From contig JAZTXH010000011.1 in assembly GCA_045636325.1 (NCBI GenBank), forward strand, positions 9,377-73,376: a stretch of DNA of 64,000 nt, given 5' to 3'. The position numbers were made by a program, and so were the translations under genes. Shown piece by piece: positions 15,706-60,267 of this stretch; position 1 is the stretch's first letter; each line of letters begins with the position of its first letter. The DNA is from Clostridia bacterium (GTDB taxonomy: Bacteria; Bacillota; Clostridia; UBA1381; UMGS1253). The notes beneath the pieces are model-generated. The model worked only from the letters and a program-made list of their open reading frames with translations. It was not told the origin of the DNA and searched no databases.

Positions 15706-15725
15706 TTTTAATTCTTCCTTTCAGC

Positions 15726-16751
15726 TTATTTTTGCTTTATATCCACCCAAAGATTAAGCTTTGCATTTTTTATAAGTTCAGAATAGTTTTGATTTTCAAA
15801 TTCAAATCTGTAGTCCTTTTGAAATATTCGATACAACTTTAAAAAATCACATCCCTCATCTTTGCAATACTTGAATGCCGCTTCTGCACTTTGTCTTATA
15901 TTTTTTTCTGCCTTTTGTTTTATATCCTCTGTCATATCCGCACTACAGACAAAATCAAAGGTAACATCAAAACTTAAATTTTCTCCGTCAAAATAAGCTT
16001 CTTTTCGTTCAGCAGTTTTATATATACTGTATTTGTCAGAATTAAAATAAAAATCAAGTGATGCCTTTTCATTAAGAAAAATATTAACCCCTTCTGTTTG
16101 CTCATTCTTTGTAAATCCAACAAGTTTCTCACCGTTAAAAATACCATATCCATCAAAACGCATAATATCATCAGAAATATCAACCGTGGCAACTGCAAGA
16201 CCTGTTTTGCCAACAGCCTGCATTTCAAAAACATCCGAAAATTCACAATATGTTATTCTGCCTTCTTCTCCTAATGCCTTTAGAAGGCTTTCAGCAGCAA
16301 ATCCTCCTGTAAAATCATTTATTGCATTGTGTGTTATAACTTTTTTCGGCTCTTTTTTGGTTATAAAGAACATGCTTTCGCTTCTTAATTTGTAGTCTGA
16401 TTTTAAACTTTGTGCAAGCTTATAAATTCCGTTTTCAGCAAATTTGTCCGACACAACAACTGCTCTTATTCCGCCATAAAACAGCGGATGGTCTGCACTT
16501 TTTTTAAGATTATCTTCTGCTTCGGCCAGACTTTTACCTTCAGCAAAAATCAAACTCACTGGCTTATCTGCCATAGAATCCGAAAGAGTTCTTACATTAG
16601 CTACCCCGCCGCCCAGTATTATTTTACCATCCTTTTCATCGGCAAAATAGGTTGTAAGAATATCCATATTTTCTATCTGATAATCACTGCAGCCACTAAG
16701 CAATAACACACACAAAACTACAAACAGACACACCGCTGATTTTACTTTCAT
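15726..16751 (-). CDS. Spore germination lipoprotein, Ger(x)C family
   Basis: 341 aa. Signal peptide ending in the lipobox LLSGC. Size and position match GerAC-type subunits. Confidence 0.75.
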   Translation of the reverse strand: MKVKSAVCLFVVLCVLLLSGCSDYQIENMDILTTYFADEKDGKIILGGGVANVRTLSDSMADKPVSLIFAEGKSLAEAEDNLKKSADHPLFYGGIRAVVVSDKFAENGIYKLAQSLKSDYKLRSESMFFITKKEPKKVITHNAINDFTGGFAAESLLKALGEEGRITYCEFSDVFEMQAVGKTGLAVATVDISDDIMRFDGYGIFNGEKLVGFTKNEQTEGVNIFLNEKASLDFYFNSDKYSIYKTAERKEAYFDGENLSFDVTFDFVCSADMTEDIKQKAEKNIRQSAEAAFKYCKDEGCDFLKLYRIFQKDYRFEFENQNYSELIKNAKLNLWVDIKQK

Positions 16752-16764
16752 TATATACCTCCTT

Positions 16765-17805
16765 TTAAGCGCTTTTATTTTTTTCTTTTAAATATCTTAA
16801 AAGATAACTTCCCGCAAGAAAATAAAGCAGCCCTCCTGCGCCAATGCTTAAAAACCATATAATTGTATCGGTTAAATTTTTTATGTTTGATAAAACTCTT
16901 GAAATAAAAAACACACCCGCGCTGCAAATAAAATACAACCACGATCTGTCTGAGTCATTTTTACTTAAAACAGCTTTTATTCCGCATCCGGCAGATATAA
17001 AGGCCGAAATCATAAATGCAACCCACGCAATAAAATATAAAATATCTCCTCTTCCAAGCAAATCACTTTTTCGCATAGCAAGCACTGCAGCGTCAAAACA
17101 CATAGCAGTCTGTTCTGCTCCCAGCAAAACTATGCACGAATAAATTATAAGAAAATATGCACATCCGCTCAACAAAAACCCTGCCAGCCATGAGACGGTA
17201 TTGCCCTTTTGGGAAAAAATGAGCGTACACAGGCTTGAAACAGACAGTATCCCAAAAATTGCAAGAGCGGGATAAATAATATTTCCATTAAGTCGTTCTA
17301 TTTCAAACAACGGAAAAATTTTTACTGTTTCCCCTCCAAAAACAATCAGACTTCTTATTAAAACAATTCCCGTAACAAAAAACAGTCCTGAAACTGTTAC
17401 TGCATAAAAAATTGCCCGTTTCTGCTTAAACAGTGTTATAAGCAAAATAATACATAATCCCGCGGTAATAAAAATTTCACTTGTATCGGGCAAAATCCAC
17501 ATATTTATTACAGATGTAAAATGTGCACACAAAAAGGAACAGGCTAAAAATAAAATAGCAGAATATATAAATTTGAAAACTTTTTTTGATGCTCTATTTT
17601 TTGTTATGTTTATCTCCTCATTAAATTGTCCTCGAGTAGCACATATCGTAAACACTGGCAAAGCAGCAAAAACACTCCCCAACACCACCGGAATCCATGC
17701 CGATGTTGACGCACCTTTAACAACTGTGTTTGCAATAAAAAAGCTTCCCGCACCAATACTTACAGTGGTAAAATAAATTATATGTGAAATATTGATTTTT
17801 TTCAT
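16765..17805 (-). CDS. Spore germination protein, GerAB-type permease (APC superfamily)
   Basis: Roughly 10 hydrophobic segments. True start is ATG 17805, preceded by AAAAGGAGGG. The ORF-track extension to 17871 runs into the hydA terminator. Confidence 0.75.
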   Translation of the reverse strand: MKKINISHIIYFTTVSIGAGSFFIANTVVKGASTSAWIPVVLGSVFAALPVFTICATRGQFNEEINITKNRASKKVFKFIYSAILFLACSFLCAHFTSVINMWILPDTSEIFITAGLCIILLITLFKQKRAIFYAVTVSGLFFVTGIVLIRSLIVFGGETVKIFPLFEIERLNGNIIYPALAIFGILSVSSLCTLIFSQKGNTVSWLAGFLLSGCAYFLIIYSCIVLLGAEQTAMCFDAAVLAMRKSDLLGRGDILYFIAWVAFMISAFISAGCGIKAVLSKNDSDRSWLYFICSAGVFFISRVLSNIKNLTDTIIWFLSIGAGGLLYFLAGSYLLRYLKEKNKSA

Positions 17806-17870
17806 TTTTGCCCTCCTTTTAGCCTTATTTTTGCCCTTTCTGCAAAATTTATACAACAGGCGATAACACA

Positions 17871-17914
17871 AAAAACAGCGAAGTAAAGTTTAAAACTATA
17901 CTTCGCTGTTTTTT
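17871..17914 (-). terminator. hydA rho-independent terminator
   Basis: acagcgaagta (17875-17885) / tacttcgctgt (17899-17909), with a T-run on the minus strand. Confidence 0.7.
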
Positions 17915-17928
17915 ATAAAGTATTTATA

Positions 17929-19656
17929 TTAAAATTTTTCTCTTGCTACATAATGTGTGTGAAGTAATTCATGCGCCTTATGAGAGTTAGGCTCACCAAA
18001 GTACTCTTTGTACATTAATTCAACATCAGGATTCTTATGACTCTGACGAACAGGTGCTTTTGCATCTTCTTCATAAAGCGCCTTTGCACGCTCTGCCTTA
18101 AGGTCGATATCCATTTGACATTTAGCAGAAACGATAGGCTGACCACCACCTGTTACACATCCGCCGGGGCAAGCCATAACTTCGATAAAGTGATATGTCT
18201 TTTCTCCTGCTTTAATAGAATCCATAAGCTTTCTTGCATTACCAAGGCCGTGTACTATAGCAACATTTACCATCTGACCGCCAAGCTCAAGAGATGCTTC
18301 TTTAATTCCTTCAACACCTCTTACTGCTTCAAACTCAAGCTTTTCTAAAGACTTGCCGTTTAATATTTCAGCAACTGTACGAAGTGCTGCTTCCATAACA
18401 CCACCGGTTGCACCAAAAATAACACCTGCGCCTGTATCTGTGCCAAAGGGCGAATCAAAAGTTTCATCAGGAAGCTTATCAAAAATTAGACCTGACTGTT
18501 TTATCATTCTTGCAAGCTCACGTGTTGTAATAACAACATCAACATCATTCGCCATTTCTTCACGCTGTGCTTCAAATTTCTTAGCTACACAAGGCATTAC
18601 AGACACAACATAAATCTTTTTAGGGTCAATGTTATTTTTCTCTGCATAGTAAGATTTCAAAACTGCACCAAACATTTCGTGTGGTGACTTGCAGCTCGAA
18701 AGATTCGGTATAAATTCGGGGTAATTGTGTTCACAGAACTTAATCCAACCGGGACTGCATGATGTAATCATAGGAAGTGTGCCACCGTTTTTAATTCTGC
18801 CAAGTAACTCTGTTCCTTCTTCCATAATTGTAAGGTCAGCTGCAGTATTTGTGTCAAACACTTTATCAAATCCCATTCTTCTTAGTGCTGCTGCCATTTT
18901 GCCTGTAACAGGTGTACCAATCGGATAACCGAATTCTTCACCTAAAGCAGCACGAACAGCAGGAGCTGTCTGAACGATAACATGCATGTCAGGATTATTA
19001 AGTGCCGCCCATACATCATCTGTGTTATCCTTTTCACGAAGAGCACCAACGGGACATGCCGCAATACACTGACCGCAGTTTACACATGAAACTTCTTTTA
19101 ATGACTTATCAAATGCACATGCAATCTTTGTATTAAATCCTCTTTCTGTAGCGTCAATTGCGCCAACGGTCTGAATATTTTTACATACACTTACACAACG
19201 TCTGCAAAGAACACACTTGTTATTATCACGAACAATTGAGGGCGAAAGGGCATCTATAGCATATTCTTTTCTTTCGCCTTCAAAAGCGATACCTGTAACA
19301 CCTAAATCATCAGAAAGCTTCTGCAATTCACAGTTCTGATTTCTTATACATGTAAGACACTTGCGGTCATGATTTGATAAAAGAAGCTCAAGTGTAACCT
19401 TTCTTGCATCTCTTACCTTCTGAGTATTTGTTTTAACTTCCAGCCCCTCAGATACCGGATACACACAAGCTGCCTGAAGTGCTCTTGCAGTTGAAACTTC
19501 AACCACACACATACGACAGGAACCTGTCTGACTCACGTTTTTCATATAACAAAGGGTGGGAATATCTATATTAGCCATACGAGCAGCTTCCAAAACAGTA
19601 ATACCTGCAGGAACACTGATTTCTATACCGTTAATTTTAATATTTACGTTTTCCAT
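17929..19656 (-). CDS. hydA: [FeFe] hydrogenase catalytic subunit (HydA, multimeric/bifurcating type)
   Basis: 575 aa. N-terminal 2Fe-2S ferredoxin-like fold, two CxxCxxCxxxCP motifs (e.g. CVNCGQCIAACP) and H-cluster signatures TSCSPGW, MPCVAKKFE and MACPGGCVTGGGQP. Confidence 0.95.
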   Translation of the reverse strand: MENVNIKINGIEISVPAGITVLEAARMANIDIPTLCYMKNVSQTGSCRMCVVEVSTARALQAACVYPVSEGLEVKTNTQKVRDARKVTLELLLSNHDRKCLTCIRNQNCELQKLSDDLGVTGIAFEGERKEYAIDALSPSIVRDNNKCVLCRRCVSVCKNIQTVGAIDATERGFNTKIACAFDKSLKEVSCVNCGQCIAACPVGALREKDNTDDVWAALNNPDMHVIVQTAPAVRAALGEEFGYPIGTPVTGKMAAALRRMGFDKVFDTNTAADLTIMEEGTELLGRIKNGGTLPMITSCSPGWIKFCEHNYPEFIPNLSSCKSPHEMFGAVLKSYYAEKNNIDPKKIYVVSVMPCVAKKFEAQREEMANDVDVVITTRELARMIKQSGLIFDKLPDETFDSPFGTDTGAGVIFGATGGVMEAALRTVAEILNGKSLEKLEFEAVRGVEGIKEASLELGGQMVNVAIVHGLGNARKLMDSIKAGEKTYHFIEVMACPGGCVTGGGQPIVSAKCQMDIDLKAERAKALYEEDAKAPVRQSHKNPDVELMYKEYFGEPNSHKAHELLHTHYVAREKF

Positions 19657-19674
19657 TATACTATCACTCCCCTC

Positions 19675-21555
19675 TTATTTCTTAACAATAGCGTTAAACT
19701 TACATGTAGACATACATACTCCACACTTAATACACTTAGACTGATCAATTGTATGAGCTGTTTTAACTGCACCTTCAATAGCTCCAACAGGACACTTTCT
19801 TGCACAAGCTGTACAACCTTTACACTTATCTTCTTCAATAGTATAACTCATAAGCTTCTTACAAACACCGGCAGGACATCTCTTGTCACGAACGTGAGCA
19901 ATATATTCGTCCTTAAAGTATTTTAATGTGCTTAATACAGGATTTGGGGCTGTCTGACCAAGACCACAGAAAGAAGATGCCTTAATTGCATTACACAATT
20001 CTTCAAGCTTGTCAAGGTCTTCCATTTCACCCCTGCCGTCAGTAATCTTTTCTAAAATTTCGTACAGACGCTTTGTACCTATACGGCAAGGTGAACACTT
20101 ACCGCATGATTCATCAACAGTAAACTCTAAAAAGAATTTTGCAATATCAACCATACAGTTGTCTTCATCCATAACAATAAGTCCGCCTGAACCCATCATT
20201 GAACCGATAGCCATAAGTGAATCATAGTCAATGGGAGTGTCAAGATGTGTAGAGGGAATACATCCGCCTGAAGGACCACCTGTCTGAGCGGCTTTAAACT
20301 TCTTGCCGTTAGGAATACCGCCGCCGATTTCTTCAATGATTTCGCGAAGTGTTGTACCCATAGGCACTTCCACCAAACCTGTATTTTTAATCTTACCGCC
20401 AAGAGCGAATACTTTTGTACCCTTACTCTTTTCAGTACCGATTGAATTAAACCAGTCAACACCTCTTAAAATAATGTGAGGAATGTTTGCATATGTTTCA
20501 ACATTATTTAAGATGGTGGGTTTTTCCCAAAGACCTTTTACAGCTGGGAACGGAGGACGGCTCTTAGGCTCACCTCTGTGACCTTCAATAGAAGTCATAA
20601 GTGCTGTTTCCTCACCACAAACAAACGCACCCGCGCCAAGACGTATTTCAACGTCAAAGCTAAAGTCTGACCCGAAAATGTTTTTGCCTAAAACTCCAAG
20701 CTCTCTTGCCTGGTCAATAGCTTTCTGCAAACGCTGAACAGCGATTGGATACTCTGCTCTTATATAAACATAACCCTGGTCTGAACCGATTGCATAACCC
20801 GCAATAGCCATAGCTTCCAAAACAACGTGAGGGTCACCTTCGAGCACACTTCTGTCCATAAATGCACCCGGATCACCTTCGTCAGCATTACATCCAACAT
20901 ATTTCTGACCCTTGGGCTGTTTTGCAGCAAAATCCCATTTCATGCCTGTGGGGAACCCTGCACCGCCACGACCGCGAAGATTTGACTTTTTCATTGTGTC
21001 AATAACTTCTTCAGGTGTCATTTCCTTAACGACTTTTGCAAGCGCCATGTATCCATCCATTGCAATGTATTCATTGATGTCTTCCGGATTGATAACACCA
21101 CAGTTACGAAGTGCGATACGCTGCTGCTTTTTATAAAAATCAATTTCATTCAAAGGCTTGATTTCGTCATCACCATGGACGCTTTCTTCATAAAGAAGCT
21201 CTTTAACAACATTACCTTTTACTAAATGCTCCTCTACAATTTTTTCAATATCCTCAAGTTTTACCATACTGTAAAAAGCACCTTCAGGATAAATAATAAC
21301 AATAGGACCTAATGCACAGAGGCCGAAACAACCTGTCTGTACAACTTTCACTTCGTTTTCAAGACCCTTTGCCTTAATCTGTTTATTAAACTCGTCCTGT
21401 AATTTTACAGAGCCTGAGGAAGTACATCCTGTACCACCGCAAACCATTACATGTGCCCTATATTCATCTCTCGGACAATCCTTAAGACCTTTTCTGATTA
21501 CAACCTCAGCCAAAGCCTTCTGGCGGATCTGATCCAATTCTGTTATACTCTTCAT
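19675..21555 (-). CDS. hydB: NuoF-like flavoprotein subunit of the hydrogenase (HydB)
   Basis: RGRGGAGFPTGMKW FMN/NADH motif, N-terminal thioredoxin-like 2Fe-2S region and C-terminal 2x[4Fe-4S] (CKGCTACARKCP, CIKCGVCMSTC). ATG 21555 follows AGGGAGGA; the ORF track extends to 21576. Confidence 0.9.
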   Translation of the reverse strand: MKSITELDQIRQKALAEVVIRKGLKDCPRDEYRAHVMVCGGTGCTSSGSVKLQDEFNKQIKAKGLENEVKVVQTGCFGLCALGPIVIIYPEGAFYSMVKLEDIEKIVEEHLVKGNVVKELLYEESVHGDDEIKPLNEIDFYKKQQRIALRNCGVINPEDINEYIAMDGYMALAKVVKEMTPEEVIDTMKKSNLRGRGGAGFPTGMKWDFAAKQPKGQKYVGCNADEGDPGAFMDRSVLEGDPHVVLEAMAIAGYAIGSDQGYVYIRAEYPIAVQRLQKAIDQARELGVLGKNIFGSDFSFDVEIRLGAGAFVCGEETALMTSIEGHRGEPKSRPPFPAVKGLWEKPTILNNVETYANIPHIILRGVDWFNSIGTEKSKGTKVFALGGKIKNTGLVEVPMGTTLREIIEEIGGGIPNGKKFKAAQTGGPSGGCIPSTHLDTPIDYDSLMAIGSMMGSGGLIVMDEDNCMVDIAKFFLEFTVDESCGKCSPCRIGTKRLYEILEKITDGRGEMEDLDKLEELCNAIKASSFCGLGQTAPNPVLSTLKYFKDEYIAHVRDKRCPAGVCKKLMSYTIEEDKCKGCTACARKCPVGAIEGAVKTAHTIDQSKCIKCGVCMSTCKFNAIVKK

Positions 21556-21639
21556 AACCGTCCTCCCTGTATTCAAGATAATAGTTAATAAATATCTGAT
21601 AATATCAAAATAAAAATTTTGTTTTATCCAATGTAATTA

Positions 21640-22131
21640 TCAGTCCATGTATTTTGCTAAAATATCTGCAACATCGTCCGGCAAAAGCTTGCCGTAAACT
21701 TCGTCATTAATTGTCATAACCGGAGCAAGACCGCAAGCTCCTATACAACGTGTAGCAACCAAAGAGAATTTACCATCAGGTGTACATTCGCCAACCTCAA
21801 TACCCAAAATCTCTTTCACCTTTTCCAAAATCTTGTCACTGCCTTTTACATAACAAGCAGTGCCCAAACAAATACCAATTTCATACTGACCTTTGGGATT
21901 AAGTGAGAACTGAGTGTAGAAAGTAACAATTCCGTAAACCTCCGCAAGTGGAACTCCCAAGCCTTCTGCAATCATAGTTTGAACCTCAATCGGAAGATAA
22001 CCATATACTTCCTGAGCCTTGTGAAGAACAGGAATAACTGCACCGCGGACATCTTTGTGTTCTTCAATTATTTTCTTAAGCTTTTCCGCCTGTTCCTGTG
22101 TTCCGTTAAAGGGTATAGCCTTCTTTTCCAT
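21640..22131 (-). CDS. hydC: NuoE-like 2Fe-2S subunit of the hydrogenase (HydC)
   Basis: ~163 aa. CLGTACYVKG ... CIGACGLAPV cysteine pattern of NuoE/HydC. ATG 22131 lies 9 nt after GGGAGG. Confidence 0.9.
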   Translation of the reverse strand: MEKKAIPFNGTQEQAEKLKKIIEEHKDVRGAVIPVLHKAQEVYGYLPIEVQTMIAEGLGVPLAEVYGIVTFYTQFSLNPKGQYEIGICLGTACYVKGSDKILEKVKEILGIEVGECTPDGKFSLVATRCIGACGLAPVMTINDEVYGKLLPDDVADILAKYMD

Positions 22132-22166
22132 CAACAAAAACCTCCCATATATGAATTTATGTTAAT

Positions 22167-48700: not shown

Positions 48701-49555
48701 TCAAATATTTTTTCTCGTTAATTCAACCAAATCACCGTCATGTGCATTAAGGCTTACTGTAATAGCTTCGCTTTCGGTATAAAAGCTTACATACCATATA
48801 CCGTCTTGCTCATAAGCGTCTGCATTTATATAATCTGTTGTTATATAACCCAAAGCTTCGCTTATTGCGCTTGCATTATCAAAAATCACATCGCCTGTTG
48901 CCGATATGTTATAAGCATCTTCGCTTGAAGTCTGGGGCACAGATATCATTCTTGAGTCCAAGCCTTCTCCACTGCCTGATGTAGGGGCATTGTTTTCCAC
49001 CATATTTTCTTGTGCATTTTCTTCAAAAGCAGTTTCGCTTTGATGTGATACAACGTTATTTTCACTTTCAGACATTCGAAAAGCATCCGGAATATTTTTC
49101 TGCTCTGCATCGCTTTGCTGACTTACAGTTTCCTGCTTATCAGCAGGTGGGGTGTTATTTTCATTTGCACTATTTAAGACTTTTTCAGAATCGGAATTTT
49201 CTCCCGCTGCGGTTTTATTATCTTTATCCTTAGAGGGTGAAAGCAGTCTCTCAGATGCATCCTCGTCAGATGTTATATAAGTCCTGTTTTTAATTTCCAT
49301 ATTTTGAATCTGATATTCACTATCCTGTGCTCTTCGTGCCTTGTGTAAATCCGACAACTGGGGATATACAACGAATGCAAGGGCAACAACAAATGCCGCC
49401 GCAACGCTTGCCGCATAAGATGTAATTTTTGTAAAATTATATTTAGGCTTACTTTTATAAAAAGTTTCACTTTTGCTTTTTAAAAGTATCTCTTCAATCA
49501 AGCCTTCTTTCGGATTTTGCTTATCTAATGCCTGCTTATACACTTGCTTAAACAA
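48701..49555 (-). CDS. Putative anti-sigma factor (single-pass membrane protein, no zinc-binding motif)
   Basis: 284 aa. Short cytoplasmic N-terminus, one TM segment (ITSYAASVAAAFVVALAFVVY), a low-complexity linker and a small C-terminal globular (PepSY-like?) domain. Its start overlaps the sigma gene stop by 8 nt. Confidence 0.6.
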   Translation of the reverse strand: MFKQVYKQALDKQNPKEGLIEEILLKSKSETFYKSKPKYNFTKITSYAASVAAAFVVALAFVVYPQLSDLHKARRAQDSEYQIQNMEIKNRTYITSDEDASERLLSPSKDKDNKTAAGENSDSEKVLNSANENNTPPADKQETVSQQSDAEQKNIPDAFRMSESENNVVSHQSETAFEENAQENMVENNAPTSGSGEGLDSRMISVPQTSSEDAYNISATGDVIFDNASAISEALGYITTDYINADAYEQDGIWYVSFYTESEAITVSLNAHDGDLVELTRKNI

Positions 49556-50045
49556 AATTAAACTCTCCTTTCAGTTTCTCTCTTAAAATTTCACGCCCGC
49601 GGTGCAACTGAGATTTTACAGTGTTTTCACCAATCCCAAGATATTTTGCAATCTCTGAGACGGACAATTCTTCATAGTAAAATAAATGAATAACCGTTCT
49701 GTATTTAAACGGCAAGTCTGAAACCGCATAAAACACATCACTTTCATGCTCGGTTTCAAAGCTAAGTTCTTCCCCTCCTGATAAGGGTACGGTTTTCTTA
49801 AACCAAGAGCTTGTGAAAATACTTTTTGCTGCATTAACGGCAACTCTTATAAGCCATGCTTTGGCATGTTCTTCAGATAAAAATTCTTTATCAGATGTAA
49901 GAAACTTTAAAAACACATCCTGACACACATCCTCAGCGTGCTGTTTATCCTTTGTCTGAGACAGGGCAAGCTTATAAATCATATTAAAATATTTCTCTGT
50001 CAGCTTTTCCTTTGAAACGGCTTTAAAATTCGTTTCATCAAGCAC
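49548..50045 (-). CDS. ECF-type RNA polymerase sigma-70 family factor
   Basis: 165 aa. Region 2 (AEDVCQDVFLKFL) and a region 4 HTH (LSVSEIAKYLGIGENTVKSQLHRGREIL). GTG start after GAAGGGGAGG. Confidence 0.85.
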   Translation of the reverse strand: MLDETNFKAVSKEKLTEKYFNMIYKLALSQTKDKQHAEDVCQDVFLKFLTSDKEFLSEEHAKAWLIRVAVNAAKSIFTSSWFKKTVPLSGGEELSFETEHESDVFYAVSDLPFKYRTVIHLFYYEELSVSEIAKYLGIGENTVKSQLHRGREILREKLKGEFNFV

Positions 50046-50372
50046 CTTAAAAACCTCCCCTTCATTTATTAATACTTTTCAGAAACCAAAAAGGTTGCAT
50101 AATTTTCAAAAAAATTTTTAGATTTACTTTTGTATTGGGTTTCGCCGATAACGGAATTGCTTTTTCTTAAAATATCCTTATAACAAACATTTCTCAGCAT
50201 ATATTTTATACAAATATACATGTATTGTCAAGGCTTTATATGTGTTTGACTTTAATATTTTTGCAGTCATTAAAAAAGCACAAATAGATATTTTTTGTCT
50301 GCTCTTATAACATTTCATCTAATTTTGTCATATTATGTACCAAGGGCGCGCCTTAAATATATATGAATAACA

Positions 50373-50525
50373 GTGCCTGCAGGCGGAAATGTAACATTGG
50401 TTTATAAAACAACGGTAAACGGCTTTACTCCCCTTGAAAGCGGAAGCACTATTGTAAACGAAGTTGTGGAAGATTCTGACACACTTTCTGCGCCCATCAC
50501 CGCCAGCGAAGCAGACACAGTTTAA
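50373..50525 (+). pseudogene. 50-codon C-terminal relic of a surface/adhesin-type protein
   Basis: Reads VPAGGNVTLVYKTTVNGFTPLESGSTIVNEVVEDSDTLSAPITASEADTV*, beta-rich and Thr/Val-rich like repeat domains of cell-surface proteins. There is an in-frame stop 2 codons upstream, no RBS, and the original terminator is retained. Confidence 0.4.
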
Positions 50526-50567
50526 AATTTTTAAACCATCGAAGCCTTTCAATAACAAATAAACGAT

Positions 50568-50609
50568 AAAAAAAGCCGGCAATTTCCCCGTGGAATTGTC
50601 GGCTTTTTG
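50568..50609. terminator. Bidirectional terminator (serves the relic and the convergent membrane-protein gene)
   Basis: aaaaaaagccggcaatt ... aattgtcggcttttt. Confidence 0.7.
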
Positions 50610-50713: not shown

Positions 50714-51454
50714 TCAGTCATTTGCAATATTCGGCTGATTGTTTGCCTGTACGTAATTCGGCTGATTATTTACCGGTGCATGCTGCACAGGCGGCTGAGC
50801 CTGAGTTCTTGAAACACCTCCGCAAACTTCAAAGAAATATGCCTTATAAAGACCTGCAAAAACAGGAGCAACTGCAATAACCAATATGTATAATACAAAA
50901 AGTGCAAGGCCAAACAAAATTCCAAGAATAGGAATAATAGCCAGCAATCCAAGTATAAAAAATACGCCAAAGGCAATAGCCGCTATGCAAAGGTCAGCCA
51001 AAAACATCTGAGTCTTTAAACCATTGGTAAGCTTTTTTGAAATTCTAAGCGCTTCTGTTGCCTTAACATTGGGATAAGTAACTATAATATACGGAACAAA
51101 GCAATAAGAATAGCTTTTTACAACCGCAATAATCGGACCTGCAATTGGAATTAAAGCCCAAATAAGAATCCAAAGGTCCTTCCACGCCATAGCACCTATA
51201 ATACGGAAACAATTTTTGCTGAAGCCCACAAACAACTGGTCTGAATAAACAGCTTTTCCCATAAGTCCGTCAAGATAGATTTTTGACATACCGCATACAA
51301 GCAGATACGAAATCGCAATTCCCACTCCGGGAATCAAACCGAACATAACTGTCGCTACTATAACCAAAAGGGCGCTCATTAATGATAAACCCCAAAGAAC
51401 AAATGGTTTTTTTGCTAAAACTCCAAAAGCTCTTTTGTAAGAATCAAAAAACAT
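50714..51454 (-). CDS. Integral membrane protein (DUF975-like), Q/P/N-rich C-terminal tail
   Basis: 246 aa with ~5-6 hydrophobic segments. GGGGGAG RBS 6 nt upstream of ATG 51454. The family name is tentative. Confidence 0.75.
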   Translation of the reverse strand: MFFDSYKRAFGVLAKKPFVLWGLSLMSALLVIVATVMFGLIPGVGIAISYLLVCGMSKIYLDGLMGKAVYSDQLFVGFSKNCFRIIGAMAWKDLWILIWALIPIAGPIIAVVKSYSYCFVPYIIVTYPNVKATEALRISKKLTNGLKTQMFLADLCIAAIAFGVFFILGLLAIIPILGILFGLALFVLYILVIAVAPVFAGLYKAYFFEVCGGVSRTQAQPPVQHAPVNNQPNYVQANNQPNIAND

Positions 51455-51475
51455 ATATATCTCCCCCTTTTTATT

Positions 51476-51508
51476 TTAAGCCGAGGAGAGTTAAACTCCA
51501 TAGGCTCT
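51476..51508. repeat. Left arm of 33-bp perfect inverted repeat
   Basis: ttaagccgaggagagttaaactccataggctct is the exact reverse complement of 51749-51781. The bases outside both ends mismatch. Confidence 0.98.
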
Positions 51509-51536
51509 ATACTGTTAATTTTATCGCCTGAGAAAG

Positions 51537-51565
51537 AGTATATCATACTTAAAAAAGCTTGTCAA
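51537..51565 (-). promoter_or_regulatory. Sigma-A-type promoter facing the membrane-protein gene
   Basis: The minus strand reads TTGACA (51565-51560) - 17 nt - TATACT (51542-51537), preceded by TGa (extended -10). Confidence 0.6.
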
Positions 51566-51675
51566 TACAAACGCTTTTTTTGTAAATTTTTACATTTTTT
51601 ATAGAATTTTTGTGTGATTTAATATGTTTTTTTTGTATTTTGGCATAATTTTTATGAAAAATATATATTTAAGCC

Positions 51676-51704
51676 TTGCAAAACGTGAAAATATATAGTA
51701 TAAT
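51676..51704 (+). promoter_or_regulatory. Sigma-A-type promoter facing glgB
   Basis: TTGCAA (51676-51681) - 17 nt - TATAAT (51699-51704). Confidence 0.6.
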
Positions 51705-51748
51705 ATATAATATATAGGTAGTTTTTTCTGTTTATATTTAATAATTAC

Positions 51749-51781
51749 AGAGCCTATGGAGTTTAACTCTCCTCGGCTTAA
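51749..51781. repeat. Right arm of 33-bp perfect inverted repeat
   Basis: agagcctatggagtttaactctcctcggcttaa ends 4 nt before the glgB Shine-Dalgarno sequence. Confidence 0.98.
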
Positions 51782-51799
51782 GGCAAAGGAGTTTTTAAA

Positions 51800-53728
51800 T
51801 TGAATAATAATACAACCGGTTTTAAATACGGTATTTCAGAATATCAGTTATATTTGTTCAATGAAGGAACCAACTATCGCGCCTTTGAAATGCTTGGCGC
51901 GCACCCTTACGAAGAAAGCGGCAGAAAAGGTATACGCTTTGCAGTGTGGGCGCCAAATGCAAAAACTGTGCGTCTGACGGGCAGTTTTAACAACTGGCAG
52001 ACAGATGATATTTTTTTAAGCCCCATGGGCAGTACAGGTGTATGGTGTGTTTTTGTCGATTTTGCAAAAGAGGGCGATTTATACAAATATGTTATTGAAG
52101 GCTCAGACGGAGAGTTTTATTTTAAAGCTGACCCCTATGCTTTTTATTCCGAACTTCGCCCCGGAACTGCATCTGTAATAAAAAATATTGATAATTATAA
52201 ATGGAAAGATACATCATGGCTTAAAAAGCGCGAGAAAAATGCTCCTTATTCAAAGCCGATGCTTATATATGAAATGCATATGGGCTCATGGAGAAGGGGC
52301 GAAAACGGTGAATATTTAAATTACCGCGAAATCGCAGACAAACTTGTGCCCTACTTAAACGAAATGGGATATACCCATCTTGAACTTATGCCGGTTACAG
52401 AATACCCATTTGACGGGTCATGGGGTTATCAGGTTACGGGGTATTTTTCAGCCACAAGCCGTTACGGAGAGCCTGAAGATTTAATGTATTTTATAGATAA
52501 ATGTCATAAAGGCGGCATCAGCGTTATTTTAGACTGGGTACCTGCACATTTCCCCCGCGATGCTCATGGGCTGAGAATGTTTGATTCAACTCCACTTTAT
52601 GAATACGCAGACCCCCGCCTTGGTGAACATAAAGACTGGGGCACGATGGTGTTTGACTATTCAAAAAGCGAGGTTGTCTCCTTCCTGCTTTCCAGTGCAT
52701 ATTTCTGGATGGAAAAATATCATATAGACGGACTTCGTGTGGATGCAGTATCTTCTATGCTTTATCTTGATTATTCAAGGCAGGACGGGCAGTGGGTTAA
52801 AAACAGACATGGCGGAAACGAAAACCTTGAAGCTATTGAATTTTTGAAAAACCTAAACAAAACCATATTTTCTGCCTTCCCCGGTGCGCTTATGATAGCA
52901 GAAGAGTCCACCGCATGGCCGAATATCACAAAACCCATTCATGAGGGTGGCCTCGGCTTTAACTATAAATGGAATATGGGATGGATGAACGATACATTAA
53001 GATACGTTTCAATGGATCCGTATTTTAGAAAATTTAACCATAATATTCTTACGTTTTTAATGTGCTATGCATTTTCCGAAAACTATATCCTGCCGCTTTC
53101 TCACGATGAGGTGGTTCACGGCAAACGTTCGCTGATTGACAAAATGTACGGCACTTATGAAGAAAAATTTTCATCACTTAAAATGTATTATGCTTATGCT
53201 TATGCTCATCCCGGTAAAAAGCTTTTATTTATGGGAAGTGAGTTCGGCCAGTTTGTCGAATGGCGCCCGTCAGAAGAGCTTGACTGGATGCTTTTAGAAT
53301 ACGAAAGTCATAACAATCTTTTTAAATACGTTAAAGAGCTTAATAATTTTTATAAAAACGAAAAACCTTTCTGGGAAATTGAAGACAGCTGGGATGGTTT
53401 TAAATGGATTAATGAACACGACGGGTCAAACAGTGTGCTTTCTTTTGTAAGATATGCAAAAAGCAAGGCAAACTGCACTGTGGTTGTATCTAATTTCACC
53501 CCCGTTGAACGAATAAAATACAGGCTTGGCGTTCCCTCGGGAGGTGAGTGGGAGATTGTTTTAAACAGTGATGATATAAAGTTTGGCGGCGGGAGTGTAA
53601 TTTCTTGCACAAAGGCAAAAAAAGACCTGTGCGACGGATTTAAAAATTATATTGAGCTTGATTTACCCGGCCTTACAACCCTTTATTTAAAAAAGAAAAA
53701 GAAAATCCGTAATAGAAAAGAAAGTTAA
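51800..53728 (+). CDS. glgB: 1,4-alpha-glucan branching enzyme
   Basis: 642 aa. GH13 motifs HIDGLRVDAVSSMLY, MIAEESTAWP and SHDEVVHGK. TTG start 8 nt after AAGGAG. Confidence 0.95.
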   Translation: MNNNTTGFKYGISEYQLYLFNEGTNYRAFEMLGAHPYEESGRKGIRFAVWAPNAKTVRLTGSFNNWQTDDIFLSPMGSTGVWCVFVDFAKEGDLYKYVIEGSDGEFYFKADPYAFYSELRPGTASVIKNIDNYKWKDTSWLKKREKNAPYSKPMLIYEMHMGSWRRGENGEYLNYREIADKLVPYLNEMGYTHLELMPVTEYPFDGSWGYQVTGYFSATSRYGEPEDLMYFIDKCHKGGISVILDWVPAHFPRDAHGLRMFDSTPLYEYADPRLGEHKDWGTMVFDYSKSEVVSFLLSSAYFWMEKYHIDGLRVDAVSSMLYLDYSRQDGQWVKNRHGGNENLEAIEFLKNLNKTIFSAFPGALMIAEESTAWPNITKPIHEGGLGFNYKWNMGWMNDTLRYVSMDPYFRKFNHNILTFLMCYAFSENYILPLSHDEVVHGKRSLIDKMYGTYEEKFSSLKMYYAYAYAHPGKKLLFMGSEFGQFVEWRPSEELDWMLLEYESHNNLFKYVKELNNFYKNEKPFWEIEDSWDGFKWINEHDGSNSVLSFVRYAKSKANCTVVVSNFTPVERIKYRLGVPSGGEWEIVLNSDDIKFGGGSVISCTKAKKDLCDGFKNYIELDLPGLTTLYLKKKKKIRNRKES

Positions 53729-53814: not shown

Positions 53815-55047
53815 ATGGATTGCATTGCTATGATTTTGGCAGGCGGTCAGGGAAGCCGTTTGGGAGCTTTAACAAAAGACGTTGCAAAACCTGCGGTTTC
53901 ATTTGGAGGCAAATACCGTATTATTGATTTTGCCTTGAGTAACTGTGCTCATTCGGGCATTGATACGGTAGGTGTTTTAACTCAGTATCAGCCATTGGAG
54001 CTTAATACCTATATCGGTAACGGAGTTCCATGGGATTTGGACAGAAATTACGGGGGCGTGTTTGTTCTTCCCCCATATCAGAAAGCGGAAAAAGGTGAGT
54101 GGTATAAGGGAACGGCAAACGCCATTTATCAGAACATCAGCTTTATTGAGCAGTTTAATCCTGATAACATACTCATTTTATCAGGTGACCATATTTATAA
54201 AATGAATTATCAAAAGATGCTTATGGCACACATTGAAAAGGGTGCTGATGCAACAGTTGCTGTTATGCCTGTTGCATGGGAAGAAGCATCCCGATTTGGC
54301 ATTATGTCAACCGATTCTGAGGGTAAAATCACAGAATTTGCTGAAAAACCAAAGGAGCCCAAAAGCAATCTTGCATCTATGGGCATTTACATCTTTAACT
54401 GGCAGAAATTAAAAAAATACCTTATTGAAGACGAAAACACTCCTGGATCAGATAACGATTTCGGTAAAAACATCATTCCCGAAATGCTTGGTGCTTCTGA
54501 GAAAATGTATGCATATAATTTTGAGGGATACTGGAGAGATGTTGGTACAATTCAGAGCCTTTGGGACGCTCATATGGATATGCTCTCTGACCCGCCCCGC
54601 CTTAACGTACAGGATTCTTCATGGGTTATATATTCAAGAAACCCCGTTAAACCTCCTCACTTTATAACTAAAGGTGCGATACTTAAAAACAGCTGTATAA
54701 CTGAAGGCTGTTATGTATCCGGTGTGGTTGACCACAGTATACTGTCCGAGGGTGTTAACGTTGAAAGTGGCGCTATTGTTCGTGACAGTGTTATTATGTC
54801 CGGTTGCGTTATAGGAGCAGGCTCAATAGTTGAAAAAGCTATCATCGGCCCTGGCACAGTAATCGGTGAAAACTGCGTAATCGGCCTTAAGGAAGCAAGC
54901 GGAGAAAACCCATATGCCTCTCCCATGTGCAGTGATGGTATAGTACTTATCGGCTGTGAGCTCAACATTGCCGATAGCACGCAGATTTATAAGAATTCTA
55001 TGGTAGAACATGATATATTAACAGATAAGGGAGGCGCAAATCAGTGA
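53815..55047 (+). CDS. glgC: Glucose-1-phosphate adenylyltransferase
   Basis: [14 protein letters not shown]...[21 protein letters not shown], followed by a C-terminal left-handed beta-helix. Confidence 0.95.
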
Positions 55048-56165
55048 ACAGTTTAATGGGAATTATCCTTACAGAGGATAAATCAAAACACTTAGGTGCG
55101 CTTACCGAAAAGCGTGCAATTTCAGCGATGCCTATTGGCGGCAGATACCGTCTTATTGACTTTATACTGTCAAATATGGTAAACTCAGATATTGACCAGG
55201 TCGGCATTGCGACACAGTATAACTATCAATCCCTTATGGACCATATAGGCTCAGGCAAACCCTGGGATTTAAACCGTAAAAACCGCGGTCTTTTCATTTT
55301 GCCCCCTTTCGTTGGCAGAGAAAACAGCTTTTCAGGCGACGGTGATTTGGACGTTTTATACGGCATTTCCAATTTTATTCACCGAAGCCCATATGATTAT
55401 GTGCTTCTGACAAACGGGTCTATTATGTTTAACACAACGTTCCGTGATATGCTTAAATGCCATATAAAGTCAGGTGCAGATATTACTGTTATGTATAATA
55501 CAGAGGAGGGTGCCTCGAGCGAATTTCTTTCAAGACATACGGTAATTGAAACTGACAACGAGGGCTTTATTACAGATATTATAAAAAACCATCACAATCC
55601 AAAAAGCCGCAAAGTGTCAATGGACACATATATTTTGAGCCGTTCACTTCTTATAAATATAATCGAAGACTGTGTTTCTCACGGCGAACACGATTTTGTT
55701 TTAGACGTGCTTGTTAAAGGTCTTTCACGCTTTAAAATAAATTCTTATGAAGCAAGCGGTTACGTTGGCAGAGTTGACACAATAGAAAGCTATTATTCAA
55801 ATAATATGAAGCTTTTGGATACTGCAGTAAGACGAGAGATGTTTTTATCCAAAAACAAGATATATACAAAGGTTAAAGACCAGGTACCCACTCACTACGG
55901 TGAGGGTGCGGTTGTGGCTGACTGTATGATAGCAGACGGCTGTAAAATTGAGGGTAAGGTTGAAAATTCAATTATTTTCCGCGGCGTTCAGATTGAAAAG
56001 GGTGCAGTGGTTAAAAATTCAATAGTTATGCAAAACAGCATAATACAGTCAAATTGTTATATTGAAAACGCAGTTTTGGATAAGGAAGTTATCGTAAAAG
56101 CAGGAAAAACACTTACAGGTCAGCCAAACTTCCCGTTTGTTGTTCCGAAAACAAGTATTATTTAA
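55044..56165 (+). CDS. glgD: Glucose-1-phosphate adenylyltransferase, GlgD regulatory subunit
   Basis: 373 aa GlgC paralogue ([21 protein letters not shown]) lacking the GGxGxRL motif. Its GTG start overlaps the glgC stop. Confidence 0.85.
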
Positions 56166-56232
56166 TTATAACAATTACTGTCTGCCGTTTTTAGCAAGAC
56201 AGTTATACCATACAAAACCGGAGTGATTAGAA

Positions 56233-57672
56233 ATGATAAAAGTTTTACTTGCCACATCAGAGGCAGTTCCCTTTGCCAAATCGGGCGGTTTGGCAGACGT
56301 TTGCGGAACGTTTCCGTTAAGCCTTGACAAAAACGAGGTTGACGTGCGTGTTATAATGCCAAAATACGGCGCAATACCAGCTGAATACACAGAGAAAATG
56401 GAATATTTAACAAATATATCCGTTCCCGTTGGTTGGCGCAATAAGTATTGCGGAGTATTTAAGCTTGTGCACGAGGGAATTACATTTTATTTTATTGACA
56501 ATGAGTTTTATTTTCTCAGCGGAAATTTATACAGCTATATTCACGAGGATATTGAAAAGTTTGCATTCTTTTCAAAGGCGGCGCTTTCTGTTCTTCCCGT
56601 GCTTGATTTCCGCCCCGATATTATTCATTGTAATGATTGGCAGACAGGTGCAATCCCCGTTTTATTAAACGCACAGTTTCAGGATAACCCCTTTTACCGC
56701 GGAATTAAAACAGTTATGACAATTCATAACTTAAAATTTCAGGGCATATGGGATAAAAAGGCTCTTACTGACGTACTCGGTATTTCTAATTCATATTTTA
56801 CCAACGACAAGCTTGAATACAACGGCGACCTTAACATTTTAAAGGGTGGCCTTGTTTACTCAGATGCTATAACAACAGTAAGCGAAACTTACGCTTCTGA
56901 AATTCAGACTCCCGAATACGGAGAGGGGCTTGAGGGTCTTTTAAAAGCAAGAAGTGCAAGCCTTTGGGGTATTGTAAATGGTCTTTCATATGAGCAGTAT
57001 AATCCTGCAACCGACAAGTATCTTGCACGCACATATAATGCAAGGAATTTTGTTTCCGGCAAAAAGGAAAACAAACTTGCACTTCAGAAAGAGCTTGGTC
57101 TTGAGGAAAATGAATGCACATTTATGATTGGTATTGTAAGCCGCCTTACTGACCAGAAGGGTTTTGACCTAATTGCGCATATTATGGAAAATCTGCGTGG
57201 TATGAATGCTCAGCTGGTGGTGCTTGGCACGGGCGAATTTGCATATGAGAGCATGTTTAAATGGTATAACGAAAATTATCCTCAAAGCTTTAGTGCAAAC
57301 ATTTGTTTTTCAAATGAGCTTGCCCATAAGATATATGCAGCTTGCGATGCATTTTTAATGCCGTCAAAATTTGAGCCCTGTGGCCTTAGCCAGCTTATCA
57401 GCTTAAAGTATGGCTGTGTGCCGATTGTGCGTGAAACAGGAGGCTTAAAAGATACAGTTTTTCCATATAACGAATATACAAATGAGGGTAACGGCTTTTC
57501 CTTTGGTGCATATAACCCTGAGGATTTGCTTACCATTGTAAATTACGCATATAATATTTTTTCATGTGACAAAAACGCATGGCGCAGCATCGTGCGCCGA
57601 GCTATGAAGTGTGACTATTCGTGGAATGTGTCTGCAAAAAAATATCTTGATTTATACAAAAGTTTACTTTAA
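56233..57672 (+). CDS. glgA: Glycogen synthase (ADP-glucose type)
   Basis: N-terminal SEAVPFAKSGGLADV, 479 aa, GT5. Confidence 0.95.
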   Translation: MIKVLLATSEAVPFAKSGGLADVCGTFPLSLDKNEVDVRVIMPKYGAIPAEYTEKMEYLTNISVPVGWRNKYCGVFKLVHEGITFYFIDNEFYFLSGNLYSYIHEDIEKFAFFSKAALSVLPVLDFRPDIIHCNDWQTGAIPVLLNAQFQDNPFYRGIKTVMTIHNLKFQGIWDKKALTDVLGISNSYFTNDKLEYNGDLNILKGGLVYSDAITTVSETYASEIQTPEYGEGLEGLLKARSASLWGIVNGLSYEQYNPATDKYLARTYNARNFVSGKKENKLALQKELGLEENECTFMIGIVSRLTDQKGFDLIAHIMENLRGMNAQLVVLGTGEFAYESMFKWYNENYPQSFSANICFSNELAHKIYAACDAFLMPSKFEPCGLSQLISLKYGCVPIVRETGGLKDTVFPYNEYTNEGNGFSFGAYNPEDLLTIVNYAYNIFSCDKNAWRSIVRRAMKCDYSWNVSAKKYLDLYKSLL

Positions 57673-57825
57673 ATTTTTCAGGTTTTTACTTGTTTTGTCT
57701 GCCCTGCGGGGGCTTTATACGTAGGGCAGTATATCCGCTTCTTTCATAAAAAAACATGACTCACTTCTTTTTTAACTGAAACGGATACAATATATATACT
57801 TTAAGTGGGTCGGAAAGGCAAAATA

Positions 57826-60267
57826 ATGTTAACAAAGAAACAAAAAACAATTTTGGACGATATCACCACTAAGGTAATGCGTATGTACGGTAAATCCATA
57901 GAGGATGCAACCGAAAACATTATCTATAAGGCATGCGCTCTTACTGTGCGTGATGAAATTATGAAAAAGTGGCAGTATTCCCACGCTAAGGTAAAGCAAA
58001 TAAAAGCAAAAAAGCTCTACTACCTTTCAAGCGAATTTTTAATGGGGCGTCTTTGGGGAACAAATATGTTAAACCTTGAGATGACAAAGGATTATGCTGC
58101 CGTTTTAAAGCATCTTGGAATTGACATCAATGCAATCGAAGATAAAGAGGCTGATGCAGGCCTCGGTAACGGCGGTCTTGGACGACTTGCAGCCTGCTTT
58201 TTAGATTCTCTTACCACACTTGACCTGCCCGCATACGGCTCAACAATCAGATATGAATTTGGCTTTTTCCGTCAGAAAATCGTTAACGGATATCAGTTTG
58301 AACAGCCTGATGCATGGCTCGATAACGGCTATGTGTGGGAGGTTGAACGCCCTGAAGAAACAGTTGAGGTACGATTTGGCGGTAAAGTTTATACTGACTG
58401 GAACGACGAAAGATTTTCTTTCCGCTATGAAAATTCACACACTGTTTTGGCTGTGCCTTATGACGTACCAATCTGCGGCTATGATTCAAAAATAATAAAC
58501 AAGCTTCGTCTCTGGAGCGCAAAAGCTCCTTCTGACCTTAATATGAAGTTCTTTAACGAAGGTCAGTATAAAAGAGCAACAGAAGAAAAGGATATGGCTG
58601 AGGTTATTTCAAAGGTATTGTATCCTGAAGATAATCACGCAGAAGGCAAGATGCTTCGTTTGCGTCAGCAGTATTTCTTAGTGTCTGCCACAATTCAGTG
58701 GATTTTAAAGGACTTTAAGCATTTCCACGGAACTGCATGGGATATATTCCCTGAAAAGATTGCAATTCATATAAACGATACCCACCCCACTCTTGCTATA
58801 CCTGAGCTTATGAGAATACTTATGGACGAAGAGGGTCTTGGTTGGGATCAGGCATGGGATATTACAACAAAAACCTTTGCATACACAAACCATACAGTTA
58901 TGGCAGAGGCGCTTGAAAAATGGCCCATTGATATATTTGAGCCAATTTTACCCCGAATTTATATGATTATAGCCGAGATAAATAATCGTCTTTTATACAA
59001 ATTAAACGAGATTTATCCCGGTGACAGAGCAAAAATTGATTATATGTCAATTATTTCAAACGGCGTGGTAAGCATGGCAAATCTGTGTCTTGCGACATGT
59101 CATGCAGTAAACGGTGTTTCAAAGCTTCATACGGATATTTTAACAGGCGATATATTCCGCGATTACTACAATATAAATCCCTCCGGTTTTCATGCAATTA
59201 CAAACGGTATTACATTCCGTCGCTGGATAATGCATGCAAATCCTGCACTGGCTGACCTTATAACCCAAACAATCGGCAAAGGCTGGCTTAAAGACGAAAA
59301 TGAGCTTAAAAAATTGGCTGAATACGCAACAGATGATGCTTTTTGTGAAAAGTTTTATAAAATCAAGCTTGAAAACAAAAAGGCATTAGCAGAATACATT
59401 AAAGAACATAACGGCATTGAAATTGACGTTAATTCAATTTTTGACGTTCAAGTTAAAAGACTTCATGAATACAAGCGTCAGCTTTTAAATGCACTTCACA
59501 TTATGTATCTTTACAATAAGCTGCTTGAAAACCCTGATATGGACTTTACGCCCCACACATTTATTTTCGGTGCTAAAGTTGCCCCCGGATATCACAGGGC
59601 AAAGCTTATTATAAAGCTTATAAACAGTATCGCAGACAGGGTTAATAATGACCCCAGAATCGGCGGTAAGATAAAGGTTGTATTTATCGAAAACTACTGC
59701 GTAACACTGGCTGAAAAAATTATTATAGCGGCTGATGTTTCCGAGCAGATTTCAACTGCAGGTAAAGAAGCATCAGGCACAGGTAATATGAAATTTATGC
59801 TAAACGGCGCACTTACAATTGGTACATTTGACGGGGCAAATGTTGAAATGAGCGAGCAGGTTGGCAGAGAAAATATGTATATTTTCGGCCTTTCAGCGGA
59901 TGAGGTAGCGGAAAAATACCGCTATCAGACAGGCGAGCCTCAGAAAATTTACGAGTCAAATATGCCTTTAAAGCGCGTTTTAGACCAGCTTATTGACGGT
60001 ACTCTTGAGCCTGAGCACGCAGGTCTTTTCAAAGAGATATACCATTCACTTATTTTCGGTGATTACGGCATTGCAGACCCCTATATGGTGCTTCGTGATT
60101 TTGATGCTTATAAAGATGCCCATGCAAACCTTGAAGCAGACTTTAAAAACCGCAAGCTATGGCTTGAAAAGGCAGTTAAAAACACTTCAATGGCGGCATT
60201 TTTCTCATCTGACAGAACAATAATCGAATATAATGAAAAGATATGGCATCTGCCCGCCATTGATTAA
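57826..60267 (+). CDS. glgP: Glycogen/maltodextrin phosphorylase
   Basis: GT35. PLP-lysine region EASGTGNMKFMLNGALTIGT. ATG 57826 is preferred over the ORF-track GTG 57805. Confidence 0.95.
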   Translation: MLTKKQKTILDDITTKVMRMYGKSIEDATENIIYKACALTVRDEIMKKWQYSHAKVKQIKAKKLYYLSSEFLMGRLWGTNMLNLEMTKDYAAVLKHLGIDINAIEDKEADAGLGNGGLGRLAACFLDSLTTLDLPAYGSTIRYEFGFFRQKIVNGYQFEQPDAWLDNGYVWEVERPEETVEVRFGGKVYTDWNDERFSFRYENSHTVLAVPYDVPICGYDSKIINKLRLWSAKAPSDLNMKFFNEGQYKRATEEKDMAEVISKVLYPEDNHAEGKMLRLRQQYFLVSATIQWILKDFKHFHGTAWDIFPEKIAIHINDTHPTLAIPELMRILMDEEGLGWDQAWDITTKTFAYTNHTVMAEALEKWPIDIFEPILPRIYMIIAEINNRLLYKLNEIYPGDRAKIDYMSIISNGVVSMANLCLATCHAVNGVSKLHTDILTGDIFRDYYNINPSGFHAITNGITFRRWIMHANPALADLITQTIGKGWLKDENELKKLAEYATDDAFCEKFYKIKLENKKALAEYIKEHNGIEIDVNSIFDVQVKRLHEYKRQLLNALHIMYLYNKLLENPDMDFTPHTFIFGAKVAPGYHRAKLIIKLINSIADRVNNDPRIGGKIKVVFIENYCVTLAEKIIIAADVSEQISTAGKEASGTGNMKFMLNGALTIGTFDGANVEMSEQVGRENMYIFGLSADEVAEKYRYQTGEPQKIYESNMPLKRVLDQLIDGTLEPEHAGLFKEIYHSLIFGDYGIADPYMVLRDFDAYKDAHANLEADFKNRKLWLEKAVKNTSMAAFFSSDRTIIEYNEKIWHLPAID

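Follow-up and report, generated by a model that had tools for sequence, protein, structure and literature searches.

In the invertible fimS switch of Escherichia coli, 9-bp inverted repeats (IRs) bound a segment with one promoter, the recombinase genes fimB and fimE are adjacent, and the outcome is on or off expression. The cassette described here resembles fimS in being a segment of about 300 bp that holds promoter DNA between short IRs; fimS is invertible, the present cassette only putatively so. It lies in a 64-kb stretch of contig JAZTXH010000011.1 of a Clostridia bacterium (the window, 35.6% G+C), between a gene encoding a DUF975-like membrane protein and glgB of the glycogen operon, and consists of two identical 33-bp arms in inverted orientation around a 240-bp interior with two outward promoters. 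Our analysis tentatively favors, at less than even confidence, a static structure in which a leader hairpin has been duplicated in inverted orientation, any effect on expression arising from the hairpins in the transcripts.

Among Clostridia, comparable elements are the 5' untranslated region (UTR) switches of C. difficile (cwpV/Cdi1, flgB/Cdi4, cmrRST/Cdi6, and pdcB), which are flipped by RecV, a recombinase encoded far away (PMC5903667). Their regulation can act post-initiation via orientation-dependent RNA, and the recombinase can be distant (PMC5903667, PMC5386303, PMC2784873). The locus analyzed here shares with them a Clostridial host and short IRs around a segment of a few hundred base pairs at a 5' UTR. 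Both orientations of the C. difficile switches have been demonstrated and each switch turns one gene on or off, whereas here two outward promoters are bracketed by perfect 33-mer IRs, and the predicted masking of the Shine-Dalgarno (SD) sequences is the same either way. Very similar dimensions and an intergenic location are found in the read-validated group 139 invertons (invertible DNA elements) of hCom2, such as that of Clostridium sp. D5, in which IRs of 26 bp enclose about 206 bp (PMC11892184). In contrast to our case, with a window free of recombinase genes and an arm of which no further copy was found, in nearly all members of that group a tyrosine recombinase is encoded no more than 5 kb away, and one IR motif recurs at many loci (PMC11892184). 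The searchable literature yielded no account of a glycogen operon with an invertible cassette that carries two outward promoters.

At the RNA level, the arm is comparable to cis-acting anti-SD leader hairpins (ROSE and fourU thermometers), being a short leader element complementary to the SD, with predicted occlusion; unlike these, it has no Rfam homology, is duplicated onto a second, divergent gene, and is missing in relatives. The two-site CsrA-bound glgC leader of E. coli likewise sits on a glycogen operon; a role of CsrA here would be no more than a lead, and its binding to the arm is uncertain, as the GGA is in the stem rather than in the loop. IRs created or homogenized by template switching are, as may be the case here, perfect reverse-complement copies of nearby sequence that can form RNA hairpins, and a switch between the arms can also invert the spacer (PMC8794818, PMC8604942, PMC13100816); the documented events are mostly of shorter range. 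Finally, miniature inverted-repeat transposable elements (MITEs), Correia elements, and repetitive extragenic palindromes (REP, REPIN) are small palindromic or terminal-repeat-bounded intergenic elements able to bring promoters or hairpins into leaders. Here, by contrast, the interior is native, the arm is not dispersed, and a transposase is absent from the window.

The left arm (51476-51508, TTAAGCCGAGGAGAGTTAAACTCCATAGGCTCT) is the perfect reverse complement of the right arm (51749-51781), with 33 of 33 positions matching, and the repeat finder stretches the repeat to 36 nt at 97%. The original prediction that identity stops abruptly holds for the outer ends; at the inner ends one mismatch is followed by TA. 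Exactly two copies of the 33-mer with up to 3 mismatches occur in the window, against none in 100 dinucleotide-preserving shuffles, which rules out a chance repeat. This pair is the only IR of at least 22 nt with non-hairpin spacing in the 64 kb, and the 855 kb of DNA compared contained a single further perfect IR of 20 bp or more whose arms are 40-1500 bp apart. The paired arms are a genuine structure, rare and far beyond chance. The other spaced IR (L054, 1964-2122; 22-bp GC-rich arm GGTGCAGGGTGCAGGGGTGCAG, 115-bp spacing) is located upstream of glgB in an unrelated metagenome-assembled genome (MAG) of Bifidobacteriaceae and looks like part of a short tandem-type repeat.

Both arms sit in one 345-bp spacer and have a G+C content of 45%, compared with 19.6% in the 240-bp interior (51509-51748). 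Reading of the sequence outside the arms bore out the absence of a flanking direct repeat; the arms end in the palindrome TTAA, which could conceal a TA or TTAA duplication. Each arm contains a dyad with unequal half-site spacing (AGCC-2-GGAG versus CTCC-3-GGCT).

Comparison with arm-less relatives provided the main evidence on the origin of the structure. On the DUF975 side, a 1-kb ENA contig (L088) carrying a 69%-identical DUF975 gene was used. The alignment of its sequence upstream of this gene with the minus strand of the window starts at the SD, takes in the TTGACA promoter, and reaches the -35 element of the glgB-side promoter. The relative orientation is the same, 123/169 positions are identical toward the interior and 33/44 toward the gene, and a single 32-nt gap falls at the place of the left arm. 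On the glgB side, three relatives with GlgB 77-79% identical (L089, L090, and L093) keep the glgB promoter block, CCTTGCAAA...GTATAATATATA, which is invariant among them, and the SD context TTTCAGGCAAAGGAGTTTTT, while the arm is absent. In an unbiased deletion scan, every 28-36-nt segment was removed in silico and the remainder realigned to the relatives. The deletion that best restored the alignment with L088 was 31 nt long (51477-51509), and that for L090 was 32 nt long and lay within 51746-51782; the best deletion for L093 likewise overlapped the right arm, and the leader of L089 was less alignable. The distance from the end of the insertion to the GGAG of the SD downstream is 6 nt for glgB and 11 nt for DUF975. 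On these alignments, each arm is a clean lineage-specific insertion of 31-32 nt, and the interior with both promoters is native DNA in its ancestral orientation, not a mobile segment. The suggestion of a very recent origin, made originally from the perfect identity of the arms, is supported by their being lineage-specific insertions missing from these relatives. More distant loci agree in lacking the structure: no comparable IR was found upstream of glgB in 12 glgB loci of GTDB relatives (about 60% identity). In two DUF975 relatives (P0003 and P0005) glgB is not adjacent.

The leaders of the relatives showed some features of their own. No significant hairpin was found at the equivalent position in their glgB leaders. 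The DUF975 leader of L088 has its own small GC hairpin (159-173, GGCAUUAAAUGCC; leader z = -2.2), which lies just upstream of the position taken by the arm in the window; the corresponding sequence of the window is degenerate and unstructured. In a 75%-identical relative (L091, 4790-5000) the glgB promoter is conserved and the leader runs for about 180 nt before the SD, compared with about 45 nt in the other relatives. The glgB leader is evolutionarily labile.

Two sigma-A-type promoters were identified in the interior. The promoter directed toward the DUF975-like gene (minus strand, 51537-51565) consists of TTGACA, 17 nt, and TGaTATACT, scores 11/12 with the TG in the promoter scanner, and is kept in L088. 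The promoter directed toward glgB (plus strand, 51676-51704) consists of TTGCAA, 17 nt, and TATAAT, scores 10/12, and is kept in L089, L090, and L093. On both sides the arm is placed between the promoter and the ribosome-binding site (RBS) that it serves, at about +22 in one predicted transcript and +38 in the other, the leaders being predicted from the consensus promoters. The architecture originally proposed, a perfect 33-bp IR around a 240-bp promoter-bearing interior with arms between promoter and RBS, is correct. The SD of the DUF975-like gene is GGGGGAG (51461-51467, minus strand) by direct reading, and that of glgB is AAGGAG (51786-51791, plus strand), which is kept in relatives and followed by a TTG start codon at 51800.

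Because the arms are inverted and the promoters are divergent, both predicted mRNAs carry the same sense sequence, AGAGCCUAUGGAGUUUAACUCUCCUCGGCUUAA: the minus-strand reading of the left arm forms part of the DUF975 leader, and the plus-strand reading of the right arm forms part of the glgB leader. Alone, the arm is predicted to fold into a two-stem hairpin (AGCC/GGCU and GGAG/CUCC; -11.7 kcal/mol, z = -2.9). In the leader context, its CUCUCCUC tract is predicted to pair with the true SD in both mRNAs. According to the partition function, the presence of the arm lowers the probability that the SD is unpaired from 0.42 to 0.02 for glgB and from 0.66 to 0.13 for DUF975. Equal masking of both SDs was reached by 5 of 600 mononucleotide-shuffled arms and by 29 of 600 dinucleotide-preserving ones, so the predicted occlusion is modestly beyond chance, unusual but not overwhelming. 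In the cassette flipped in silico, with the left junction ...CCCCTTTTTATT-[TTAAGCCGAGGAGAGTTAAACTCCATAGGCTCT]-GTAATTATTAAATATAAACAG and the right junction CAGGCGATAAAATTAACAGTAT-[AGAGCCTATGGAGTTTAACTCTCCTCGGCTTAA]-GGCAAAGGAGTTTTT, the same probabilities are hardly changed, at 0.01 (glgB) and 0.11 (DUF975); the predicted RNA effect thus needs no inversion.

Further copies of the arm were sought widely. A blastn-short search of the rest of the window and of about 790 kb of the relatives' loci detected no degenerate copies, and the 24-nt arm core was not matched exactly by anything in GTDB representative genomes, JGI metagenome contigs, or IMG/VR. Comparison of the cassette with PLSDB plasmids and INPHARED phages yielded nothing similar, only AT-rich noise. 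The conserved interior block, used as a second metagenome query, had a single match (L094), which is unrelated and due to chance. No family was found in Rfam, either locally at E <= 10 or window-wide at the gathering threshold, and the IR tables in the supplements of PMC11892184 contain no matching IR. A dispersed 33-mer, the possibility that the original prediction had itself raised as damaging, is rejected, no further copies having been found in anything searched. That the two copies are separated by just 240 bp, while the other 63.7 kb has none, speaks against a high-copy REP-like family and for local copying from arm to arm, or for selection of the pair.

Several known elements were compared with the arm and rejected. 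It does not resemble loxP, FRT, or rox sites or sequencing-adapter sequences; ISL3-type ends are in the wrong register, an extracytoplasmic function (ECF) sigma promoter is dissimilar, and a tRNA-like anticodon arm would be non-canonical. A BglG/SacY-type ribonucleic antiterminator is unlikely, since no terminator follows. Inspection of the glgB promoter did not reveal a catabolite-responsive (cre) site for CcpA.

The explanation that we tentatively prefer is a young, lineage-specific inverted duplication of a hairpin segment of about 32 nt into both 5' leaders of an ancestral divergent promoter region. Both mRNAs would then share a 33-nt module comprising a decoy GGAG and the anti-SD tract, which may fold on itself or pair with the real SD; translation initiation of the glycogen operon and of the DUF975 gene would thereby be damped and perhaps co-regulated. 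The IR in the DNA would be a by-product of copying one arm across, for example by a replication template switch, which would automatically yield the inverted orientation and the perfect identity, one donor copy being sufficient. Occasional inversion between the arms could occur, though it would not be the purpose of the structure. Template switching during replication creates perfect reverse-complement copies, homogenizes IR arms, makes RNA hairpins, and can invert spacers (PMC8794818, PMC8604942). Putative entry and return microhomologies (TA, TAA) may be read at the junctions. As neither arm occurs in relatives, the donor copy must, under template switching, have arisen first.

A number of points weigh against the static duplication. 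The leaders are predicted from consensus promoters alone, folding of the whole leaders gives weak z-scores (-2.07 for glgB, +0.32 for DUF975), and the p-value of the masking control is only about 0.01-0.05; moreover, any insert with CTCC would tend to mask an SD. Support from conservation or covariation is absent, because the two copies are identical and homologs are lacking, and Rfam yields no family for the arm. Like every other hypothesis, the static duplication does not account for the origin of the first copy, and both arms look inserted. The 33/33 identity and the exact bracketing of both promoters would be expected of an inverton too, and the rarity of long spaced perfect IRs is about that of validated invertons (PMC11892184).

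The last points lead to the inverton proposed originally, in which a tyrosine or serine recombinase encoded elsewhere would recombine the 33-bp arms and flip the 240-bp block, so that the extended -10 DUF975 promoter and the conserved glgB promoter would be exchanged between the operon and the membrane-protein gene. That inversion would exchange the promoters is logically correct. We regard this explanation as possible, at a likelihood well short of even. Its architecture is the textbook one, the perfect 33-bp IR enclosing 240 bp that include promoters; such IRs are very rare, whether by chance or not, perfect identity is expected at crossover sites, and the MITE and dispersed-repeat alternatives have failed. 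Each arm can also be read as an imperfect dyad (about 13-7-13, with AGTTAAA as its asymmetric center), which has the layout and scale of a tyrosine-recombinase core site. Precedents count for it as well: gut Clostridia-like genomes have a median of 3 validated invertons, including the above example with 26-bp IRs (PMC11892184), and the recombinase of the C. difficile 5' UTR switches acts from afar (PMC5903667). However, the only orientation seen is that of the window, which is the ancestral one. A Pfam scan of all 58 window open reading frames (ORFs) of at least 90 aa, extending over the 51 kb left of the cassette and the 12 kb right of it, revealed no recombinase, integrase, or transposase, in agreement with the earlier statement that the window has no recombinase, while in the largest validated Clostridial inverton group the recombinase is nearly always within 5 kb (PMC11892184), which we counted against an inverton. 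The IR motif is shared with no other site in the window, the relatives' loci, GTDB representatives, JGI metagenomes, IMG/VR, or the supplements of that paper. Since both promoters are near consensus and SD masking is independent of orientation, a flip would change little unless the promoters were differently regulated. An inverton needs the same unexplained double insertion and, in addition, recognition of the new site by a recombinase, and transcribed twin hairpins would account for the same sequence features. In its specific form of a newborn inverton, with two recombination sites of about 32 bp inserted in both leaders after the split from the arm-less relatives and exchanging the promoters, the proposal is marginally more doubtful. 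Calling an inverton takes more than a perfect IR around promoters. The static duplication and the inverton are nearly equal in our estimate and are not mutually exclusive; we lean somewhat against inversion.

Other explanations carry much less weight. Independent double insertion of a REP-type or mini hairpin mobile element, with incidental effects on expression, appears improbable, although the arm, as an imperfect palindrome of about 32 nt, falls in the 20-40 nt range of REP-type elements, has a higher G+C content than the interior of this intergenic DNA, and was inserted cleanly, without an obvious target duplication, both times after TAY and before A. A family abundant enough to strike one spacer twice should recur in the window, yet just two copies are found in the 64 kb, both in the same 345-bp spacer; GTDB representatives, JGI metagenomes, and IMG/VR lack the arm, and the window has no IS200/IS605-type or RAYT-type (Y1) gene. 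Even less probable are paired operators, one downstream of each promoter, at which a single protein, possibly with looping, would repress both units. The identical sites, their symmetric placement at about +22 and +38, and the dyad symmetry inside each would fit such operators, but the half-sites of the dyad are unequally spaced, the sites are missing in relatives that keep the promoters, and the adjacent regulator genes are limited to an ECF sigma/anti-sigma pair, whose promoter type the arm does not match on inspection. The possibility that the whole 306 bp is a MITE or insertion sequence (IS) remnant with outward promoters, inserted between the genes, can be practically dismissed. Its terminal inverted repeats, small size, outward-reading promoters, and TTAA ends, which could conceal a target duplication, are all as in such elements; nevertheless, this reading is refuted by the interior, which is homologous to native intergenic DNA of the arm-less relatives, conserved there in place and in orientation, and contiguous with conserved SD contexts, and the element is single-copy everywhere searched.

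If the cassette flips, glycogen storage, a core metabolic trait, would be under phase variation by an unusual promoter-exchange design, and the arm-less relatives would show how an inverton arises on promoter DNA that already existed, something seldom documented. A static cassette would be a clean natural case of one short hairpin module copied into two divergent leaders, imposing the same predicted masking of the ribosome-binding site on both genes.

The genes on both sides of the cassette were assigned as follows. The left one (50714-51454, minus strand) encodes a protein of 246 aa. Its designation as DUF975-like stands through homologs, up to 69% identical, that carry PF06161; the protein itself has no Pfam match at E <= 1e-3. 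Two 22-nt direct repeats, 86% identical and with a 27-nt period, occur at the 3' end of this gene (50729-50777) and imply a short repeated C-terminal peptide. The right gene (51800-53728, plus strand) is glgB, encoding 1,4-alpha-glucan branching enzyme, as originally identified, with the Pfam domains CBM_48, Alpha-amylase, and Alpha-amylase_C. It is followed on the same strand by the rest of the glycogen operon (53815-60267, by Pfam): glgC (53815-55047), glgD (55044-56165), glgA (56233-57672), and glgP (57805-60267). The glycogen gene order is identical in relatives L089 and L091. The glgB start is non-ATG in all close relatives (TTG at 51800 of the window, at 987 of L089, and at 535 of L093; GTG at 5001 of L090) and is preceded by a near-invariant SD context, AGGCAAAGGAGTTTTT, and the highly conserved promoter block; together these suggest tight, conserved control of glgB initiation.

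An ECF sigma factor and a putative anti-sigma factor are encoded upstream of the locus (48701-50045, minus strand). In relatives L090 (3779-4727) and L093 (1-140) the sigma gene lies immediately upstream of glgB in divergent orientation. The window has the DUF975 gene and an 84-aa ORF (50328-50582) without a Pfam match between the sigma gene and glgB, as L088 presumably does, so that the adjacency of DUF975 and glgB is itself lineage-specific.

Sampling of the lineage is very poor: among about 15 billion sequences, the DUF975 protein, GlgB, and GlgA each form a singleton cluster. The nearest relatives, at 62-79% identity, are Oscillospiraceae, 'Avimonoglobus', and unclassified Clostridia MAGs. 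GlgB of the closest GTDB genomes is about 62% identical, and in the closest metagenomic contigs the identity is 75-79% for GlgB and 69% for DUF975.

Elsewhere in the window, a polysaccharide-synthesis cluster of about 20 genes, all on the minus strand, occupies about 22300-43800; its products include glycosyltransferases, an EpsG-type polymerase, a flippase, a pyruvyl transferase, an FrhB-like reductase, UDP-sugar epimerases, a dehydrogenase, and a priming sugar transferase. The promoter end of this cluster carries neither an IR nor an inverton-like element. Three genes at 17929-22137 (minus strand) have the domain make-up of an electron-bifurcating HydABC-type [FeFe] hydrogenase. A germinant-receptor operon (GerA/GerC/spore permease) is located at 14278-17871 on the minus strand, and its presence indicates that the host is a spore-forming Clostridia-type organism.

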